From positions 32,001 to 96,000 of IMG/VR virus record IMGVR_UViG_2974666281_000001: 64,000 nucleotides of DNA; one strand, written 5' to 3'. Position 1 is the stretch's first letter, and every line of letters begins with the position of its first letter. Source of the stretch: a virus. Lineage: Duplodnaviria > Caudoviricetes. Positions 29,899 through 42,820 of this stretch are shown piece by piece. The position numbers and the translations under genes are program-made. The notes below the pieces were generated by a model, which saw only the letters and a list, made by a program, of their open reading frames with translations, did not search any database and was not told the DNA's origin.

Positions 29899-30139
29899 AA
29901 TAGCCACCTTTATGTACATAACGAATAGAAATATCTAGCTTAATAGGGTCTTTAAACATCTGAACAGCACGTACTAGTTTACGATCGTAACAAATCAAGC
30001 TACGAGATACCAGGCCGTAAAAAGGCCCAGCAACAAAAGTAATTTGGATGTCAGGTTTTGAATTAAGCTCTTCTAGAGTTGCTTCAGTTTCAATAACAGA
30101 CTTTTGGAATGGGCCGTTCATAATCATATATCTCATCAT
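29873..30139 (-). CDS. Vs.7-like protein
   Basis: FVAGPFYGLVSRSLICYD; directly downstream of vs.8. Confidence 0.65.
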   Translation of the reverse strand: MMRYMIMNGPFQKSVIETEATLEELNSKPDIQITFVAGPFYGLVSRSLICYDRKLVRAVQMFKDPIKLDISIRYVHKGGYYGSSYNQR

Positions 30140-30669
30140 TGTAATCCTATCACGAAGAAAAGTGGAAGCTCGTTAGTTGTACGCAACACAGCAGTGCTAA
30201 CTTCTTTTTGGTAAGTGGAGTAGAACTTGTGCATCTCTGGCAGACGAATAGGTTCATCTATAATAAAGAGAACACGAGACAATGAGATTCCACGGAAACT
30301 ATTGCAATTTCCACTTAAGAAGTTACGTATCGAGACTGTAATAATATCACGTTTTAATTCATGAGCAGAATAGCGATGACGTTTTTGATTCAGGTGTTCT
30401 TCAATGATTCGCTTCTTAGTGATTTCAGCAAAACTAGATGTATCTGAAATGACTACAACAGAGTTACCACGTTCCAGCCATTCTGAAGTGAATTGAGCTA
30501 CAGCCTCAGTTTTACCTGATTGACGTCCACCATCGATACGAAGAGTACAATATTCTTGCATCAGCGAGATAGGATAAAGCTTTTGGTCTTTAAGTTCTTC
30601 TAAACGATTGTCTGCACGGGTTGAGAACGCATGCATCAAGGTTAGATAGATGGGAGTTAGATATTTCAT
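30136..30669 (-). CDS. vs.8: Vs.8, small P-loop NTPase (terminase-ATPase-like motifs)
   Basis: YCTLRIDGGRQSGKT (Walker A), LFIIDEP (Walker B), FFVIGLQ. Confidence 0.88.
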   Translation of the reverse strand: MKYLTPIYLTLMHAFSTRADNRLEELKDQKLYPISLMQEYCTLRIDGGRQSGKTEAVAQFTSEWLERGNSVVVISDTSSFAEITKKRIIEEHLNQKRHRYSAHELKRDIITVSIRNFLSGNCNSFRGISLSRVLFIIDEPIRLPEMHKFYSTYQKEVSTAVLRTTNELPLFFVIGLQ

Positions 30670-30671
30670 TT

Positions 30672-30884
30672 TGTTTACTCAGTCTAAGAATGGCAGCATC
30701 CTTGCTGTCTAGTGGCATCCTGCGATATGCCTCAGAGGGCTACAGCCACCACTGTTGGTGGGACCCTGATTGTAACTGGCTTTACCGCGCTTGGGCTTGA
30801 CCTTTTTACAGGTACCAGAAGCCACTTCACACAGAGGACACGACGTTCATGAGGAGAGGTTCAGGTTAGCTTTTTGTTTGAAGA
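30672..30884 (-). ncRNA. candidate structured leader RNA upstream of vs.8
   Basis: ~210-nt GC-richer gap with at least five helices and a possible pseudoknot; see findings. Confidence 0.6.
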
Positions 30885-31301
30885 TTAGTTGTAAATAGCC
30901 TTACCGTAATGTTTGTACCATAAAGGCTTTTGAGCAATTTTTTCATCAAGACGTGCCTGAGATAACATGATGTCATCTAAAGACGGACAGTAATGATTAC
31001 GAAATTCCTTAGGAATGTCACTGATATCCTGAACAGTAACATCCTTGATATTGAACCCACGTTTCAGACATTCAGCAATCAACTGAGTTTGACGATCAAC
31101 TAAGTAGTCAAGTTTGTCATAGAAGAACGTGACATGGCCAGTGCCTAACAAGAACTTAGAAGCAATTTTAAAATCCTTGAGACGTTTGCCATTTTGAACA
31201 TGCTTACGAACAGCACCAAATACACGAGGGAGTTCACGATACTCAGCCATGAGATGTTGGTCAGCAAGTTCAGAAACGAGAGTTAAGTTAATACGTGTCA
31301 T
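30885..31301 (-). CDS. denV: endonuclease V, pyrimidine-dimer DNA glycosylase
   Basis: [28 protein letters not shown]...[10 protein letters not shown]. Confidence 0.98.
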
Positions 31302-31326
31302 GATGTCCTCCAAAGTTTAGGAAGAC

Positions 31327-31356
31327 ATCATACCACAGTACTATCTTGTTGTAAAC
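31327..31356 (-). promoter_or_regulatory. early promoter of denV
   Basis: GTTTACA-N17-TATGAT. Confidence 0.88.
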
Positions 31357-31643
31357 TACTTTTTAGAGTAGTCAGCCATTAGTTTGACTACGTCACCTAA
31401 TTTCTTACCAAACAGATAATCTACTTCTTTACCTGCTTTGTTAACAATCTGCCATTGACCATCGCCTTTGTTGCCAAAAGTATAGTCACCAACTTTAAAC
31501 GAGTAGCCACCTACTTTTTTAACAGGAGTCACTTCAAAACCAAGTTTTTTAGCTTGGAAAGTTACACGACGCAGGGTGTCGTCCATTTCGCTTTCAGTCA
31601 AAGGCTGAGTATAAGTTTGAAGATAAGATTCAAGTAAAGTCAT
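31356..31643 (-). CDS. putative internal head protein (ipII/ipIII map position)
   Basis: Between denV and e; N-terminal LLE/LTE protease-type sites; Lys-rich. Confidence 0.55.
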   Translation of the reverse strand: MTLLESYLQTYTQPLTESEMDDTLRRVTFQAKKLGFEVTPVKKVGGYSFKVGDYTFGNKGDGQWQIVNKAGKEVDYLFGKKLGDVVKLMADYSKK

Positions 31644-32128
31644 TAGTATGCACCCCAAGTGCCAGTTTTAAAAGTAGAAATAACGCGCTTTGCACGGTTC
31701 GTAGTCTGATTATACCATCGGGATTTAGCTAAGTTAACTGCTGCTTCGTCCCAACGTTTTTCTTTAAGCATACGCATTGAATTAGTGAATCCTGCGACGC
31801 CTGCTACACCCATCTGGAACACCATATTAATCAGTGCTGCTCGACGGATTTCGTCAAGAGAATCGTACACAGGCTTCAGAACGCTGTTGCCTTGAATACC
31901 TTTAACAGCTTTCTCAACATCTTTAGCAAAGATACTTTCAGCTTCATCTTGAGTAATCTGTCCATTACAAGAACGACCAACAAGTTTGTCGAGTTCTGCT
32001 TTAGCTACTGACAGAGAAGGGTTTTTGGTCAAAAGATGACCGATTCCGATAGTCCAATAACCTTCGGTATCTTTATAAATTTTAGAATCGTATCCTTCGT
32101 CGATACGAAGCATTCCAAATATATCCAT
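31643..32128 (-). CDS. e: T4-type lysozyme (endolysin)
   Basis: MLRIDEG...[16 protein letters not shown]...[10 protein letters not shown]. Confidence 0.99.
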
Positions 32129-38948: not shown

Positions 38949-39033
38949 TGGTGCACCGAGAGGGATTCGAACCCTCAATCCTTGCGGCGGGAGATTTTAA
39001 GTCTCCTGTGTATACCAGTTCCACCATCGATGC
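38949..39033 (-). tRNA. tRNA-Leu(TAA)
   Basis: GGAGA-CT-TAA-AA-TCTCC, long variable arm, encoded CCA. Confidence 0.96.
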
Positions 39034-39038
39034 AAATT

Positions 39039-39115
39039 TGGTCGAGACAGAAAGATTCGAACTTTCGACCGGTGGATTAGAAGTCCACTGCTCTATCCAA
39101 CTGAGCTATGCCTCG
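39039..39115 (-). tRNA. tRNA-Arg(TCT)
   Basis: GTGGA-CT-TCT-AA-TCCAC, CCA. Confidence 0.96.
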
Positions 39116-39119
39116 AAAA

Positions 39120-39246
39120 TGTTCAGGGAGGACTCGAACCTCCAAGATTGCAGCCTCTCGTCGGGTTACCTCTTACTCAGCTGGGTGCTTAAACCAGCGT
39201 TTCAAATAGAGTTCGCCAATATGTCTACCGATTTCATCACTGAACA
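39120..39246 (-). ncRNA. tRNA-like RNA with 72-nt domain replacing the anticodon/variable arms
   Basis: Acceptor TGTTCAG/CTGAACA, Leu-type D arm, T arm GGAGG-TTCGAGT-CCTCC, no encoded CCA. Confidence 0.8.
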
Positions 39247-39258
39247 ATTAATTTTATA

Positions 39259-39711
39259 TCATTGAGCTTGAAGCATTTCACGTACGCGATAAAGATTAGA
39301 ACAGAACTCTTGTTCTGTTAGAACAGTTTCATTCTTCTTATTTTTACCCATACTATGAGTTAGTGTTGAGTTACGCGTAGCCAGGATAGCTCTCTTGAAA
39401 CCTTCATTCAAAGCCATAGCATGATATGCACGAGATATTAAAGTTGCATAGGCTGGACTCTGGCGCTGCATAGGAACACCTTTCCAATACAATGTTTGAG
39501 TTCGCCGCCAGTTCTTTTTCTTACCTTTGAACTTAGCTTTCTTACCAACTAATGTACAAACATGTTCTTGCATTTCTATAGAAGAAAACTTCAAAGACTG
39601 AAGAAAACCTTCCATTGATGCACATTGTACACCATCAATTTCGAAAGCATGAGGAGCAAAGTTGCTTAATGCACAACTTGGGTACATCGAACCTGAGCCG
39701 ATATCCATCAA
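39259..39711 (-). CDS. NADAR-family protein (T4 gp30.3-like)
   Basis: PSCALSNFAPHAFEIDG...SMEGFLQSLK...TLYWKG...LTHSM...TVLTEQEF. Confidence 0.85.
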   Translation of the reverse strand: MMDIGSGSMYPSCALSNFAPHAFEIDGVQCASMEGFLQSLKFSSIEMQEHVCTLVGKKAKFKGKKKNWRRTQTLYWKGVPMQRQSPAYATLISRAYHAMALNEGFKRAILATRNSTLTHSMGKNKKNETVLTEQEFCSNLYRVREMLQAQ

Positions 39712-39932
39712 TAGTCTCCATTAGCAAGAAACATGTGAATATCATCAATATCTGTGATAATGTTTTCGATTTGGTCTTCAAAATTACAAAGCCAATTCAT
39801 TTCATTTGGAGATGAAATCCAATTAGCACATTGAATGCACTGATTACCAATTGAGTCTTGGTAAATCACTGCTTCAGAGTGTCCACCAGTTTTCCATTTG
39901 ATAATAGCAAAGCCTAAAGGATATTTTTTCAT
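39708..39932 (-). CDS. hypothetical protein
   Basis: 74 aa, coupled. Confidence 0.7.
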   Translation of the reverse strand: MKKYPLGFAIIKWKTGGHSEAVIYQDSIGNQCIQCANWISSPNEMNWLCNFEDQIENIITDIDDIHMFLANGDY

Positions 39933-40180
39933 ATGTCCTCTACTTGAGCCATAACAGTGCGTTTACGAACGACACATCCATCGAACCTTGGGTCTTTCTT
40001 ACGAACTACAAAACCCGAAGGGAGAACGAATCCATTAACAGTTCGTAAGGCTTCTTCTAAATCATTAAAGCCTGTGGCCTCAATGAGTTCGTCAAAGGCC
40101 CAACCTGGGAATTCAGTACAATCAACGTACTGCGCATAGGCTTTTTTAACTGGACAATAGATAACAAAATCTTGTTGCAT
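39929..40180 (-). CDS. hypothetical protein
   Basis: Start MQQDFV with RBS GAGG right after a tRNA. Confidence 0.75.
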   Translation of the reverse strand: MQQDFVIYCPVKKAYAQYVDCTEFPGWAFDELIEATGFNDLEEALRTVNGFVLPSGFVVRKKDPRFDGCVVRKRTVMAQVEDI

Positions 40181-40199
40181 TATATTTTCCTCATGTATT

Positions 40200-40275
40200 T
40201 GGTGACCCTGACTGAGATTCGAACCAGTGACCAATCCCTTATGAGGGGAGCGCTCTACCGCTGAGCTACAGGGCC
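40200..40275 (-). tRNA. tRNA with CAT anticodon (probably Ile2, or elongator Met)
   Basis: GGCCCTG acceptor, CT-CAT-AA loop, CCA; one extra base in the T stem. Confidence 0.88.
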
Positions 40276-40298
40276 ATTGTCAAAACATTGTTGCTTTG

Positions 40299-40325
40299 AA
40301 AATAGCCCTCTCCGAAGAGAGGACA
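40299..40325 (-). terminator. intrinsic terminator
   Basis: GTCCTCTC-TTCG-GAGAGGGC-TATTTT. Confidence 0.75.
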
Positions 40326-40332
40326 GAGGGTA

Positions 40333-40560
40333 TTAGCTACACATAAATTCTGCAACTTCATCGAAGCTATTCAGAATGTAATATAACTTAGGCTCACTCG
40401 TAGGAGTTGCCTTAATAGTGATACGTACACGACCGAACAGGTCTTCAGTCAGACCAACGATTGCACTTGAACGAACCACTGCTCGTCCGATTGGCAGGAT
40501 TTCGCCGGTAGCCAGAGCTTGCAGTTCAGTGTTGATTTCGATTACGATACGTTCAGACAT
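40333..40560 (-). CDS. early hypothetical protein
   Basis: Start MSERIV behind an early promoter. Confidence 0.75.
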   Translation of the reverse strand: MSERIVIEINTELQALATGEILPIGRAVVRSSAIVGLTEDLFGRVRITIKATPTSEPKLYYILNSFDEVAEFMCS

Positions 40561-40591
40561 TTTGATTTCCATTTGTTGTTTCGATGTAGTA

Positions 40592-40621
40592 ATAATAACA
40601 CGATTATTTTGAAGCGTAAAC
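40592..40621 (-). promoter_or_regulatory. early promoter
   Basis: GTTTACG-N17-TATTAT. Confidence 0.85.
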
Positions 40622-40633
40622 CGTTCAGAGACT

Positions 40634-40655
40634 AAAAAGCCATCCGAAGATGGCT
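40634..40655 (-). terminator. intrinsic terminator after tRNA-Gly
   Basis: AGCCATC-TTCG-GATGGCT-TTTT. Confidence 0.9.
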
Positions 40656-40661
40656 GAAATT

Positions 40662-40736
40662 TGGAGCATCCAGAGAGAATCGAACTCTCATCTACTGGGT
40701 GGAAGCCAGTCATAATAGCCGCTATACGATGGATGC
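40662..40736 (-). tRNA. tRNA-Gly(TCC)
   Basis: ACTGG-CT-TCC-AC-CCAGT, CCA. Confidence 0.95.
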
Positions 40737-40737
40737 T

Positions 40738-40811
40738 TGGCAGGCCCCGTAGGAATTGAACCCACGTCACTGAGGTTGGAGCTCAGGGTAATACCACTAT
40801 ACGAGAGACCT
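40738..40811 (-). tRNA. tRNA-Trp(CCA)
   Basis: CTGAG-CT-CCA-AC-CTCAG, CCA. Confidence 0.95.
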
Positions 40812-40817
40812 ATTGTT

Positions 40818-40892
40818 TGGTGGGAGCTGTTGGTAACGATCCAACCTCTCGAGCTCTTCAGGCAAGCGCTAATCCATCTCAGCTAAACTCCC
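40818..40892 (-). tRNA. tRNA-Phe(GAA), non-canonical
   Basis: CTTGC-CT-GAA-GA-GCTCG; T-loop ATCGTTA; CCA. Confidence 0.85.
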
Positions 40893-40894
40893 AG

Positions 40895-40972
40895 ATCCAC
40901 GAGAACTTTACTGGCATCGCGCCAAACCATTGCTGGAAGTTAGGGTACTATTTCTAGTCCGTGGTTGTCCCT
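40895..40972 (-). ncRNA. candidate structured spacer RNA between tRNA-Ile and tRNA-Phe
   Basis: Closing stem CCACG/CGTGG, internal AACTT/AAGTT and TGGC/GCCA. Confidence 0.5.
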
Positions 40973-40979
40973 ATTTTTT

Positions 40980-41055
40980 TGGTGCGAATACCTGGGCTCG
41001 AACCAGGGACCTACCGCTTATCGGGCGGTTGCTCTACCAACTGAGCTATATTCGC
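40980..41055 (-). tRNA. tRNA-Ile(GAT) with C33
   Basis: ACCGC-CC-GAT-AA-GCGGT, CCA. Confidence 0.93.
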
Positions 41056-41059
41056 GAAT

Positions 41060-41137
41060 TGGTCTCCATGCAAGGATTTGAACCTTGGACCTCCTGGTCC
41101 CAAACCAGGCGCTGCTACCAAACTGAGCTACACGGAG
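41060..41137 (-). tRNA. tRNA-Pro(TGG)
   Basis: CCTGG-TT-TGG-GA-CCAGG, CCA. Confidence 0.95.
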
Positions 41138-41138
41138 A

Positions 41139-41384
41139 TTAATTTATATCAAATATGGTGTTGTCTTTCCACATTTTAGCAAAAAGAGGAGAAACTTTTG
41201 TTAAACGATGAGCAACTTTAACACGATTATAATTGCCTTCAATTAAAGCACCATAGCCATTAATATCAGTTACCTTGGAAACAAGGACTTCGCCTACATC
41301 ACCCATGCTATTACATTTTAAGCCAATCATTACGAAATCGCCTACTGTAATAACTTTACCGTATTTGTCTAACAATGTCTTCAT
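41139..41384 (-). CDS. hypothetical protein (KOW/SH3-like)
   Basis: DKYGKVITVGDFV pattern. Confidence 0.7.
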   Translation of the reverse strand: MKTLLDKYGKVITVGDFVMIGLKCNSMGDVGEVLVSKVTDINGYGALIEGNYNRVKVAHRLTKVSPLFAKMWKDNTIFDIN

Positions 41385-41409
41385 AATTATTTATTCACCA
41401 TATTTTAAT

Positions 41410-41503
41410 TGGAGGAAGATGTGAGATTCGAACTCACGGGACCTGTCACCAGGACCTCCGCATTTCAAGTGTGGTGCAATTAGCCAGACTCTGCCAATCT
41501 TCC
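41410..41503 (-). tRNA. tRNA-Ser(TGA)
   Basis: CCACA-CT-TGA-AA-TGCGG, long variable arm, CCA. Confidence 0.93.
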
Positions 41504-41507
41504 GAAT

Positions 41508-41583
41508 TGGGGTGACCGGTGGAACTCGAATCCACGACATCCTGAATCACAATTAGGGGTTCTACCAACTGAACTACGGCCAC
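41508..41583 (-). tRNA. tRNA-His(GTG)
   Basis: CCTAA-TT-GTG-AT-TCAGG, C73, CCA. Confidence 0.93.
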
Positions 41584-41679
41584 ATCAATATTCTCTCTTG
41601 CAATCAAGATGCGTTGTCAGAATGTATTAGAATGAATCGCGTATTCAAACCATTTACACACTCAGAGAAAATATTAATT
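41584..41679 (-). ncRNA. candidate structured spacer RNA between tRNA-Gln and tRNA-His
   Basis: Closing stem AATATTTTCTCT/AGAGAGAATATT with internal hairpins. Confidence 0.5.
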
Positions 41680-41755
41680 TGGCTAGGGTATCTGGACTCG
41701 AACCAGAGCATGGGAGAATCAAAATCTCCTGCCTTACCAACTTGGCTATACCCTA
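41680..41755 (-). tRNA. tRNA-Gln(TTG)
   Basis: GGAGA-TT-TTG-AT-TCTCC, CCA. Confidence 0.95.
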
Positions 41756-41761
41756 ATTATT

Positions 41762-42139
41762 TTAGAAACCGAAGCCCACACCTACACCGAATACAGCTTC
41801 TTCAGAAGTTGCTGCAACAGAAGCTTTAAAAGCAGCAGGAGCATCGTTTGGAACAAAATTAATACCAGCAGCTAATGCTTGTTCACTGTCAAAACCACCA
41901 AAGGCTACACCACCAGATAGTTGATGACCTGGAACTACTGGAATATTAGTCATGGCTGCTACACCAGCTACACCAGCAGCGGCATATTCGCGGGCTTTAG
42001 TTACTTGTGCATTTGTATTTAAAGCACCAGCTCGATAAGAGTTATCTTTTGAAGCTGCGTCGAAATCAATTGGAGGCAGAGCTGCAAAAGAAGAAGCACT
42101 CATTACCAGGGTCATAACTGCGATAGTATGTTTCATCAT
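41762..42139 (-). CDS. YadA-like trimeric autotransporter membrane-anchor protein
   Basis: Signal peptide (..SSFA), AAAGVAGVAAM helix, four predicted beta strands, terminal FGVGVGFGF. Confidence 0.85.
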   Translation of the reverse strand: MMKHTIAVMTLVMSASSFAALPPIDFDAASKDNSYRAGALNTNAQVTKAREYAAAGVAGVAAMTNIPVVPGHQLSGGVAFGGFDSEQALAAGINFVPNDAPAAFKASVAATSEEAVFGVGVGFGF

Positions 42140-42168
42140 TTTTCATTTCTCTTGTTGTTGGAGTTTAC

Positions 42169-42194
42169 ATAATAACATATTATTTTAAAGCAAT
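42169..42194 (-). promoter_or_regulatory. middle promoter for the YadA-like gene and downstream tRNAs
   Basis: ATTGCTTTA-N11-TATTAT. Confidence 0.8.
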
Positions 42195-42195
42195 T

Positions 42196-42272
42196 TGGAG
42201 GCGGGTGATGGACTCGAACCATCGCGTAACGGGATATGAACCCGTCATTCTACCAACTGAAGTTAACCCGCA
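42196..42272 (-). tRNA. tRNA-Met(CAT), initiator type
   Basis: ACGGG-TT-CAT-AT-CCCGT (three G-C pairs), 1:72 mismatch, CCA. Confidence 0.9.
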
Positions 42273-42397
42273 TCTATCCGGATTCCTGAAGTACAAACAA
42301 GTAGCTCGATGTAGAACACATAAAGTGGGAACAACTTACTTCGTCCTCGGCATTTACTTACAGGACTCTAACTCATCTTCAAGAACTGCCTCGTATT
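42273..42397 (-). ncRNA. candidate structured spacer RNA between tRNA-Asn and tRNA-fMet
   Basis: Long-range stem TCCTG(T)AAGTA/TACTTCAGGA enclosing AAGTA/TACTT and ATGTG/TACAT. Confidence 0.55.
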
Positions 42398-42481
42398 TGG
42401 CGGGTAGTGTAGGATTCGAACCTACGTTGTCTTTCGACACGGATTAACAGTCCGCCGCTTAAACCGCTCAGCCAACTACCC
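42398..42481 (-). tRNA. tRNA-Asn(GTT) with long variable arm
   Basis: GCGGA-CT-GTT-AA-TCCGT, arm GTC-GAAA-GAC, CCA. Confidence 0.93.
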
Positions 42482-42488
42482 ATTTATT

Positions 42489-42565
42489 TGGTGGGACATC
42501 ATGGACTCGAACCATGGACACCCGGATTAAAAGTCCGGTGCTCTAACCAACTGAGCTAATATCCC
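42489..42565 (-). tRNA. tRNA-Lys(TTT)
   Basis: CCGGA-CT-TTT-AA-TCCGG, CCA. Confidence 0.96.
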
Positions 42566-42570
42566 GAATT

Positions 42571-42645
42571 TGGTACTCTGTAGGAGAATTGAACTCCTCT
42601 TTCCTGCGTGAAAGGCAGGCGTCCTAACCGATAGACGAACAGAGC
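42571..42645 (-). tRNA. tRNA-Glu(TTC)
   Basis: CCTGC-CT-TTC-AC-GCAGG, CCA. Confidence 0.95.
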
Positions 42646-42649
42646 AATT

Positions 42650-42725
42650 TGGCGGACCTAACGAGATTCGAACTCGTGACGCTCCCGTGACAGGGGAGTA
42701 TTTTAACCGCTGAAACTATAGGTCC
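42650..42725 (-). tRNA. tRNA-Asp(GTC)
   Basis: CTCCC-CT-GTC-AC-GGGAG, CCA. Confidence 0.95.
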
Positions 42726-42731
42726 TGAATT

Positions 42732-42820
42732 TGGTGCGCCGAGAAGGACTCGAACCTACGAAGCTCATTACAAGCAGAAGATTTACAGTCTCCACCCTTT
42801 GCCACTCGGGTCATCAACGC
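42732..42820 (-). tRNA. tRNA-Tyr(GTA)
   Basis: GGAGA-CT-GTA-AA-TCTTC, long variable arm, CCA. Confidence 0.93.

Follow-up and report, generated by a model that had tools for sequence, protein, structure and literature searches.

The window analyzed here (the whole stretch of DNA, 64,000 nucleotides) comes from a T4-type phage of Erwinia, a Winklervirus. On its minus strand, the lysozyme gene e is followed by a small internal-protein-like gene, denV, a gap, vs.8, and the remaining vs cluster. The features that border the gap are the following:

31355-31327, minus strand: early-type promoter-like site (TTTACA, 17 nt, TG-TATGAT), just upstream of denV
30885..31301, minus strand: denV, pyrimidine-dimer glycosylase, the upstream neighbour (Pyr_excise, E 3e-15)
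30136..30669, minus strand: vs.8, 177 aa, the downstream neighbour (weak P-loop and terminase-N-like matches)

The gap runs from the stop codon of denV (30885-30887) to the start codon of vs.8 (30667-30669). Its GC content is 49.3%, compared to 38.8% for the window, which places it at the 99th percentile among 215-nt windows. This agrees with an earlier note on this DNA, in which the gap had been described as unusually long and GC-richer. The 351 bases around the gap are 100% identical in Erwinia phage Gravdalen and about 84% identical in Virsaitis27, LC53, and Vettismorki. The Pfam matches of Vs.8 were to AAA_14 (E 1.8e-4) and Terminase_6N (E 3.7e-4), and both fell below the cut-off.

The promoter-like site upstream of denV probably drives denV, the RNA described below, and vs.8. 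No promoter-like or terminator-like site was found within the gap of the window and, thus, the RNA would be at least initially part of an mRNA there. Most likely, the gap is transcribed within the denV-vs.8 early RNA in the window phage.

Architecture and covariation of the element

The gap contains a conserved element, of which 59 distinct instances were gathered from annotated phage records, IMG/VR, and metagenomes. Its parts, as far as the variable hairpin, are given here:

30690..30873, minus strand: whole conserved non-coding element, consisting of a 5' lead-in, the core domain closed by P0, a variable hairpin, and a 3' GGA module (three alignments)
30865-30765, minus strand: core domain, ~100 nt, closed by P0
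30861..30865, minus strand: P0 5' strand CCUGA, partner 30765-30769 (covariation)
30830..30853, minus strand: P1 domain, CUCA (30853-30850) with UGUG (30833-30830), one U.U mismatch in the window phage
30848-30836, minus strand: P1a hairpin GAACG-UCG-UGUCC, inside P1
30815..30818, minus strand: P2 5' strand CUGG, which closes the three-way junction, partner 30776-30779 (covariation)
30800..30813, minus strand: P3 hairpin ACCU-GUAAAA-AGGU, with the pseudoknot-forming loop at 30809-30806 (100% paired)
30780..30799, minus strand: invariant 20-nt junction segment C-AAGCCCAAGCGCGGUAAAG, consensus CnAGCCmAAGnGCGGUAAnG (near-invariant columns across all phage classes)
30780..30799, minus strand: possible mini-helix P4, 2-3 bp (CC/GG), within the junction segment
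30776..30779, minus strand: P2 3' strand CCAG (covariation)
30771..30775, minus strand: pseudoknot 3' strand UUACA, partner the P3 loop (U)GUAA (covariation)
30765..30769, minus strand: P0 3' strand UCAGG (covariation)
30745..30762, minus strand: variable hairpin Hx, CCCACCA-ACAG-UGGUGG(C), without a U-tail (compensatory stem changes)

The core consists of P2, P3, and the 20-nt junction and has a common layout: P2 (3-4 bp), one unpaired A or U, P3 (RCCU-GUAAnA-AGGY), the junction segment, and the P2 3' strand. P2, P3, and the mini-helix P4 together make up a three-way junction. Three parts of this structure had been proposed in the earlier note, namely the hairpin ACCU-GUAAAA-AGGU at 30813-30800, a pseudoknot of its GUAA loop with UUAC(A) at 30775-30771, and the hairpin CCACCA/UGGUGG at 30762-30745. 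All of these are present and backed by covariation, which for the first of them supports P3. Two other pairings did not hold. The proposed closing stem, TGGCTT/AAGCCA, is disrupted in relatives of the Melville, JD18, and JS10 types; the stem that covaries is CUGG/CCAG. UCAG/CUGA and AGGG/CCCU are private to the window phage and Gravdalen and compete with the conserved P0. The 5' domain (30865-30825) and P0 were absent from the earlier description.

Covariation was assessed in two alignments. A gapless alignment of 33 sequences from all phage classes was used for P2, and the pair types CG, GC, UA, and GU were observed, with 37 cells altered on both sides. In this alignment, 88.6% of the P2 cells were paired compared to 73% in shuffles; none of 500 shuffles matched the score and slid controls did not exceed 46%. 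The second alignment contained the 20 T4-like sequences with the long 5' domain. Here, P0, P2, P3, and the pseudoknot covary, G.U intermediates included, and the helices were 87.4% paired compared to 77.7% in shuffles (0/500 reached this value; slid controls were at most 40%). P0 pair 11/107 occurs as UA, AU, CG, UG, and GC, pair 12/106 as GC and CG, and pair 9/109 as CG, AU, and GU. The tails of Melville and TG1 were aligned by manual reading and, therefore, the P0 counts are conservative. P2 swaps between GC and CG within this set, and P3 shows an AU to GC swap in the Melville type and in the second copy of PEi20. At pseudoknot pair 67/100, 15 sequences have AU, 4 have GU, and 1 (L100) has GC. 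The combinations found were UGUAA/UUACA, UGUGA/UUACA, and UGUGA/UCACA, the last of these in L100.

The remaining stems varied in how much they revealed. P1 is invariant in most relatives and is uninformative on covariation there, while TG1 and EcS1 lack one C and one G, both at paired positions. The A.C mismatch in P1a becomes A-U in TG1, EcS1, and L030. Hx was found in Winkler-, Karam-, and PEi20-type phages only. Its stem changes in a compensatory manner between genera (CCACC/GGUGG, CUAGC/GCUAG, and CCAUC/GAUGG) and its loop varies freely; no terminator was called at Hx.

The junction columns show little or no variation when T4-like, N4-like, rV5-like, and Ivi-type phages are compared. Divergent second copies, which stand in tandem in PEi20-type phages, keep AG...CGGUAA and have the P4 loop replaced. 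Since these copies retain the junction letters and swap the P4 loop, the invariant part is best described as the junction of a three-way junction. In the N4-like class, 98.6% of the cells were paired, with two compensatory pairs, and the tail pairs with the P1 loop instead of the P3 loop. A pairing of P1 loop and tail was also read by eye in the rV5-like and Ivi-type phages with other letters (CCAG/CUGG, GAGGG/CCCUU, and CUCCGG/CCGGAG). The minimum free energy fold of the single sequence was no more stable than those of shuffles (z = -0.1). Fold energy is therefore uninformative, and the structural support comes from comparison.

The element is 90.6% identical between the window and CC31, compared to 54.6% for the vs.8 DNA and 76.9% for the 3' end of denV. 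Identity of the Vs.8 protein outside the genus is at most 49%. The alignments show an element that, as judged from its substitutions, is selected at the RNA level in a strand-specific and structure-preserving manner. Part of the near-identity of the core between unrelated phages could stem from recent horizontal transfer instead of constraint.

The same alignments bear on whether the gap acts as DNA or protein, either as a linker that anchors recombination of internal-protein cassettes or as a small protein gene (a 38-aa ORF on the minus strand or a 46-aa ORF on the plus strand). In close relatives of the window phage, insertions or deletions of an internal-protein gene of 300 or 570 nt fall precisely between denV and the element, which itself is nearly unchanged, and this would suit a recombination anchor. 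Three Winklervirus substitutions are synonymous in the plus-strand frame by our own reading of the alignment, and the Gravdalen record annotates a 38-aa CDS at the element. However, compensatory changes with G.U intermediates in four helices are signatures of a strand-specific RNA, and some phages that carry the element lack internal-protein cassettes. No conserved ORF was found in the gap between the denV stop and the vs.8 start; all six frames are closed to 6-20 codons in some carrier among the 59 instances, and 1-nt indels occur within the element among relatives. Neither the 38-aa nor the 46-aa ORF matches Pfam. The small ORFs on both strands were rejected because no frame is conserved and there is no Pfam match. 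By these reading frames the element is shown to be non-coding, and a DNA linker or protein gene is extremely improbable.

Relation to known RNAs and distribution among phages

No Rfam 15 family matched the element when the window was scanned at E up to 10. The nearest hits were two chance snoRNA matches, far below threshold, that touch the gap ends (30630-30707 and 30883-30951) and leave the core uncovered. On 5-6 other carrier loci, a search at E up to 1 gave no match to the element; all hits were tRNAs or were weak and had no relation to it. ARAGORN called 16 tRNAs in the window; no tRNA or tmRNA was called at 30.7-30.9 kb or at the element in other carriers. With a covariance model built from the core (R1), a single copy was found in the window, with 68.9 bits and a rough E-value of 2.5e-20, and the next best match had 10 bits with filters off. 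The 171-kb genome likewise contains one copy by this model. No description of the element was found in the full-text literature; a catalogue of 10,006 candidate viral RNAs (PMC10690425) may contain it. The earlier note's view of a conserved, pseudoknotted, undescribed RNA agrees with the covariation and the lack of an Rfam match. The element is very probably a real, functional structured RNA of a new family.

Short likenesses to several known RNAs, each of only 6-9 nt, were treated as chance. These were to the 530-loop of 16S rRNA (GCGGUAAU), the anticodon loop CUGUAAA of tRNA-Tyr, the PK region of tmRNA, P12 of RNase P, and ToxI.

Among the known RNAs of phages, rnaC and rnaD of T4 (species 1 and 2 RNAs) are also small structured non-coding RNAs of T4-type phages. 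We take both to lie beside the tRNA cluster in T4, a neighbourhood that resembles the one of the new element in other phage families. They are, however, not homologous to it. R1 finds one copy in the window even though the tRNA region (38.9-42.8 kb) is included, so the element is unrelated to the stable RNAs there. In T4-likes, the element is located ~8 kb from the tRNAs and inside mRNA. GOLLD and ROOL are orphan structured RNAs of phages and prophages that often adjoin tRNA genes; they are 500-800 nt in length and are in Rfam. The new element resembles them as an orphan structured phage RNA and differs in its core of ~100 nt and its unrelated sequence.

Another possible comparison is with the small self-cleaving ribozymes (twister, pistol, hatchet, hammerhead, and HDV-like). 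The earlier note had also suspected a ribozyme, and a new one of this kind would cut the polycistronic early RNA upstream of vs.8, at a site behind denV or behind the internal-protein genes. The element shares with these ribozymes its size, nested helices with a compact pseudoknot, a conserved unpaired core, and the association with phages, and it has an intergenic, sense-strand place in phage operons. However, its helix order and junction lengths are different, and no Rfam ribozyme model matches even at E up to 10. The junction strands (1, 4, and 5 nt) and their sequences do not fit the hammerhead core. The earlier note had found no clean fit to twister, pistol, hammerhead, or HDV, and the element fits none of them. 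In the divergent second copies, moreover, the P4 loop is free to vary. A ribozyme is very unlikely.

The core was detected by blastn in ~400-690 phage records, including T4, where the annotated vs.8 ORF runs across the element. A stretch of 45 bases at its centre hardly differs in a single letter between hundreds of T4-likes and three unrelated groups of enterobacterial phages. Carriers outside the T4-likes were N4-like Schitoviridae, rV5-like Vequintavirus, and small phages of 45 kb (Ivi and L028). The element is therefore shown to be common to four unrelated lineages of virulent enterobacterial phages. All named hosts of isolates belong to the Enterobacterales, except in one Pseudomonas-labelled record, the copy of which is essentially identical to the T4 type, and one Aeromonas-labelled record, which is Karam-like.

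Bacterial genomes were also searched. A search of 185,579 prokaryote genomes with a degenerate 29-nt pattern of the core returned 0 hits, and the 115 scattered hits of a 16-mer taken from the invariant segment were judged to be chance. A host copy or complement of the junction was considered and rejected; the two enterobacterial 16-mer hits were without the P3 hairpin and by eye appeared to be in coding sequence. The L028 version had no blastn match in 5,426 E. coli genomes. A looser pattern, applied to metagenomes for wider relatives, returned mostly coding false positives.

The genomic context of the element varied. In T4-likes it is always in sense orientation and directly upstream of an ORF, 25-60 nt before the start. 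This ORF is mostly vs.8, and in the JD18 type it is an internal-protein gene. The N4-like copy lies within a 1-kb stretch without an annotated CDS and has no gene for ~700 nt; each N4-like unit is flanked by inverted repeat arms, which pair to form a stem of ~20 bp. In N4-like and rV5-like loci, the element is 230-700 nt from a tRNA cluster and on the same strand. In Ivi, it comes after the endolysin gene, and a terminator and a promoter-like site precede it. An intrinsic terminator is found ~100 nt past the core in L028, with no real ORF between. A consensus promoter separates the element from the next gene in isim, and a separate promoter is present at this place in Ivi too. These contexts show that the element forms free-standing or stem-bracketed units in the other phage families.

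The earlier note had suggested that the RNA may be a partner of the Vs.8 ATPase and had proposed a check for conservation and covariation upstream of vs.8 homologues. Both conservation and covariation were found. Vs.8 occurs in about 1010 phage records, all of them enterobacterial T4-likes. Four carriers of the RNA (Ivi, isim, KpCHEMY26, and G001) gave no vs.8 hit by tblastn, although very distant homologues could escape such a search. Since vs.8 is absent from the carriers outside the T4-likes, the reading of an RNA plus NTPase module fails, and the JD18 type has another gene downstream. The element is shown to depend neither on Vs.8 nor on a fixed gene downstream.

This variety of contexts also bears on a possible cis-acting riboswitch or leader, the reading that the earlier note names first. 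Here, a small molecule or a protein would bind to the core as its aptamer, and translation of vs.8 would be set by an expression platform made up of the 3' GGA hairpins. A three-way junction with invariant unpaired nucleotides and a loop-tail pseudoknot is the typical architecture of an aptamer, and the sense position directly upstream of an ORF in T4-likes fits this reading. The P0 3' strand of the window has an alternative downstream pairing (CAGGG with CCCU). The tandem copies in PEi20-type phages recall some tandem riboswitches. However, the single class of downstream gene that a riboswitch calls for was not found, as what comes after the element may be vs.8, an internal-protein gene, a terminator, or no gene at all. 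In N4-like phages no gene follows for ~700 nt, in L028 a terminator is reached before any real ORF, and in isim and Ivi a separate promoter precedes the next gene. Across relatives, no conserved alternative pairing of P0 or P2 with the Shine-Dalgarno sequence was found. The element also differs from known riboswitches of this architecture in having no Rfam riboswitch match and no shared, recognisable expression platform. Ligand pockets and ribozyme cores just as typically have an invariant junction, and the lack of a constant downstream gene makes both readings less likely. We consider a riboswitch to be quite unlikely.

A cis-acting element that needs no ligand is another explanation. Such an element might be a put-like antitermination RNA or a structure that blocks nucleases or directs processing, serving the early RNA and untranslated tRNA operons. 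It would account for the sense orientation within transcription units in all cases, the position upstream of tRNA clusters in two families, and the order of promoter-like site, element, intrinsic terminator, and further genes in Ivi and L028. The pseudoknotted fold is compact, and a host machine conserved in the Enterobacterales would explain the invariance of the sequence. On the other side, the N4-like copies are near one genome end, which we take to be the early region and to be read by a phage-encoded rather than a host polymerase. A mere exonuclease block does not need 20 invariant unpaired bases, and T4-likes have no consistent downstream terminator. This explanation is unlikely.

The 3' GGA module

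The 3' part of the element contains two further hairpins in the window:

30714..30731, minus strand: H1 hairpin GGCAU-AUCGCAGG-AUGCC, with the first GGA (30720-30718) in GCAGGAUGC (sequence and fold)
30694..30707, minus strand: H2 hairpin CAGC-AAGGAU-GCUG, with the second GGA (30701-30699) in the loop (sequence and fold)

Both had been recognised in the earlier note, as GGCAU/AUGCC and CAGCA/UGCUG, and they are present at 30731-30714 and 30707-30694. Two GGA motifs, 17-19 nt apart, were found after P0 (and after Hx where present) in 35/35 distinct T4-like sequences. They are usually A-N-GGA, and the second is in the loop of GCC(A)...(U)GGC; the relatives have GCC(A)-nGGAA(n)-GGC at the place of H2. 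In several T4-like sequences, the Shine-Dalgarno position of the next gene is occupied by a third GGA. The first GGA has no consistent hairpin in relatives. H1 (AUG...CAU) was rejected as a conserved hairpin because its 5' strand becomes AAG, AGG, or ACG in relatives without compensation.

The 3' domain of the window (30744-30672) has no blastn relative besides Gravdalen. It still contains GCAGGAUGC and GCAAGGAUGC 19 nt apart (CA(A)GGAUG sites), and the second GGA is in the loop AAGGAU of the 4-bp hairpin H2. In shuffled controls, a GGA pair at this spacing was found in 4%, and the stricter pair of longer words was found in 0/20,000.

CsrA recognizes GGA in a hairpin loop with the consensus A(N)GGA, and a spacing of ~18 nt is optimal for the dimer. 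The module has the features of such a target, with at least two GGA motifs, one of them in a hairpin loop, at a spacing that one dimer could bridge. In this respect the 3' module alone, with its two A(N)GGA motifs 17-19 nt apart and the second in a short hairpin loop, resembles CsrB/RsmB-type sponges and CsrA-controlled leaders; the CsrB-type words in the window are CAGGAUG and CAAGGAUG. However, the sponges have many sites and the element has two, there is no homology, the core domain has no GGA logic, and the likeness is of motifs alone. From motif and spacing, it is conceivable that the 3' module binds a dimer of host CsrA/RsmA, and we regard this as tentative. Alternatively, the role of the GGA motifs could lie in intramolecular pairing or in 30S binding. 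Base pairing between these motifs and UCC tracts in the 5' domain was considered and rejected, as the registers are inconsistent between types.

Possible function of the RNA

The element is far better conserved than the surrounding proteins and is present in at least three further phage families with the same hosts. This conservation and spread point to a function tied to something constant in enterobacterial cells. The reading that we favour is that the core is a compact, nuclease-resistant domain that would act as an RNA in its own right. In this structure, the pseudoknot would lock the P3 loop to the 3' tail and P0 would close the domain. The core would be released from the early denV-vs.8 mRNA, or outlive it, as a stable small RNA; for T4-likes, this release or stability is pure conjecture. 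The surface of the invariant junction would bind one macromolecule conserved in the Enterobacterales, and no metabolite would be sensed for vs.8. The 3' module would recruit CsrA, which might tune translation of the next gene or be tethered or titrated. The proximity of tRNA clusters in N4-like and rV5-like loci provides a stable-RNA context and was counted in favour of this mechanism. Based on sequence and context, a trans-acting or stable-RNA mechanism is a serious possibility that still falls short of an even chance.

More broadly, the four lineages might share an RNA effector or decoy of a new class that, bound through its invariant junction, disables or redirects a conserved host machine or defence, or T4 might carry a new class of ribozyme or riboswitch. 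As a proposal drawn from sequence comparison, this is rather doubtful. The partner, once identified, could reveal a new RNA-based phage takeover of the host or protection from it. The element would also represent a new class of structured RNA, possibly an aptamer or a ribozyme.

The P0 outer helix, the corrected closing stem, and the absence of vs.8 from carriers outside the T4-likes are new in this analysis. The twin-GGA module, which is replaced by unrelated sequence in the window phage, is new as well. The genome of T4 is among the most thoroughly studied, yet the element is unannotated there and is buried in an over-extended vs.8 ORF. Annotation of the element would stop spurious small ORFs and N-terminal extensions at this place in about a thousand phage records.

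Coding annotations on the RNA core

Two annotated reading frames overlap the core of the structured RNA, one in Gravdalen, an Erwinia phage whose record is near-identical to the window, and one in phage T4 (L numbers denote comparison loci from other phages).

Window 30709-30825, minus strand: counterpart of Gravdalen CDS0125, a 38-aa "hypothetical protein"
L009:584-700, phage T4 record OL964735: annotated vs.8 CDS and RNA core

CDS0125 was placed directly over the core, and its reading frame showed no conservation among the other phages that carry the RNA. In the T4 record, vs.8 is annotated as starting at L009:584, which puts the core (590-646) inside the CDS, while the start common to other phages lies at L009:695 (ATGAGAAC...). 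The resulting N-terminal extension of 37 codons looks like an annotation artefact.

Gene content around denV

L002:1611-2180 and L003:1611-1910: internal-head-protein gene cassette in relatives; counterpart, window junction 30884/30885
Window 38949-42820, minus strand: cluster of 16 tRNA genes

The cassette between denV and the RNA measures 570 nt in Virsaitis27 and LC53 and 300 nt in Vettismorki, and is absent from the window phage. Its junction reads TAA/TCTTCAA (slash, break point), and the site is thus a hypervariable cassette position bordered by the denV terminus on one side and the RNA on the other. Gravdalen has an additional internal-virion-protein gene of 474 nt adjoining denV (L001:622-1095). 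This gene is missing from the window (31302-31660) and, therefore, the window phage is closely related to Gravdalen but distinct from it. The tRNA cluster and the RNA share a strand, with the cluster approximately 8 kb upstream in the direction of transcription.

Repeated elements in other carriers

L022:5087-5141, L093:473-527 and L107:9131-9185: second, divergent tandem core copy in PEi20-type phages
L035:1005-2007, Klebsiella phage KpCHEMY26: 1-kb stretch without annotated CDS

The second copies scored 22-32 bits with R1, the covariance model of the core; CGA or CGG replaces the loop of P4, the possible mini-helix, and the junction letters are unchanged. The box TAGAGGGCTTGAwAGTGC directly precedes the RNA in all five rV5-like loci (L034, L048, L067, L077 and L109), recurs after it in L067 and L109, and is a possible promoter or processing signal specific to these phages. 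The KpCHEMY26 stretch contains a weak, sub-threshold tmRNA_permuted match (L035:1635-1722; 33.7 bits, cut-off 47). It is built of units bounded by AGTGCTCTTTyCGTTGTG, which we take to resemble rrn boxA, and a partial complement of this sequence, and possibly represents a series of small RNAs that are released by processing.
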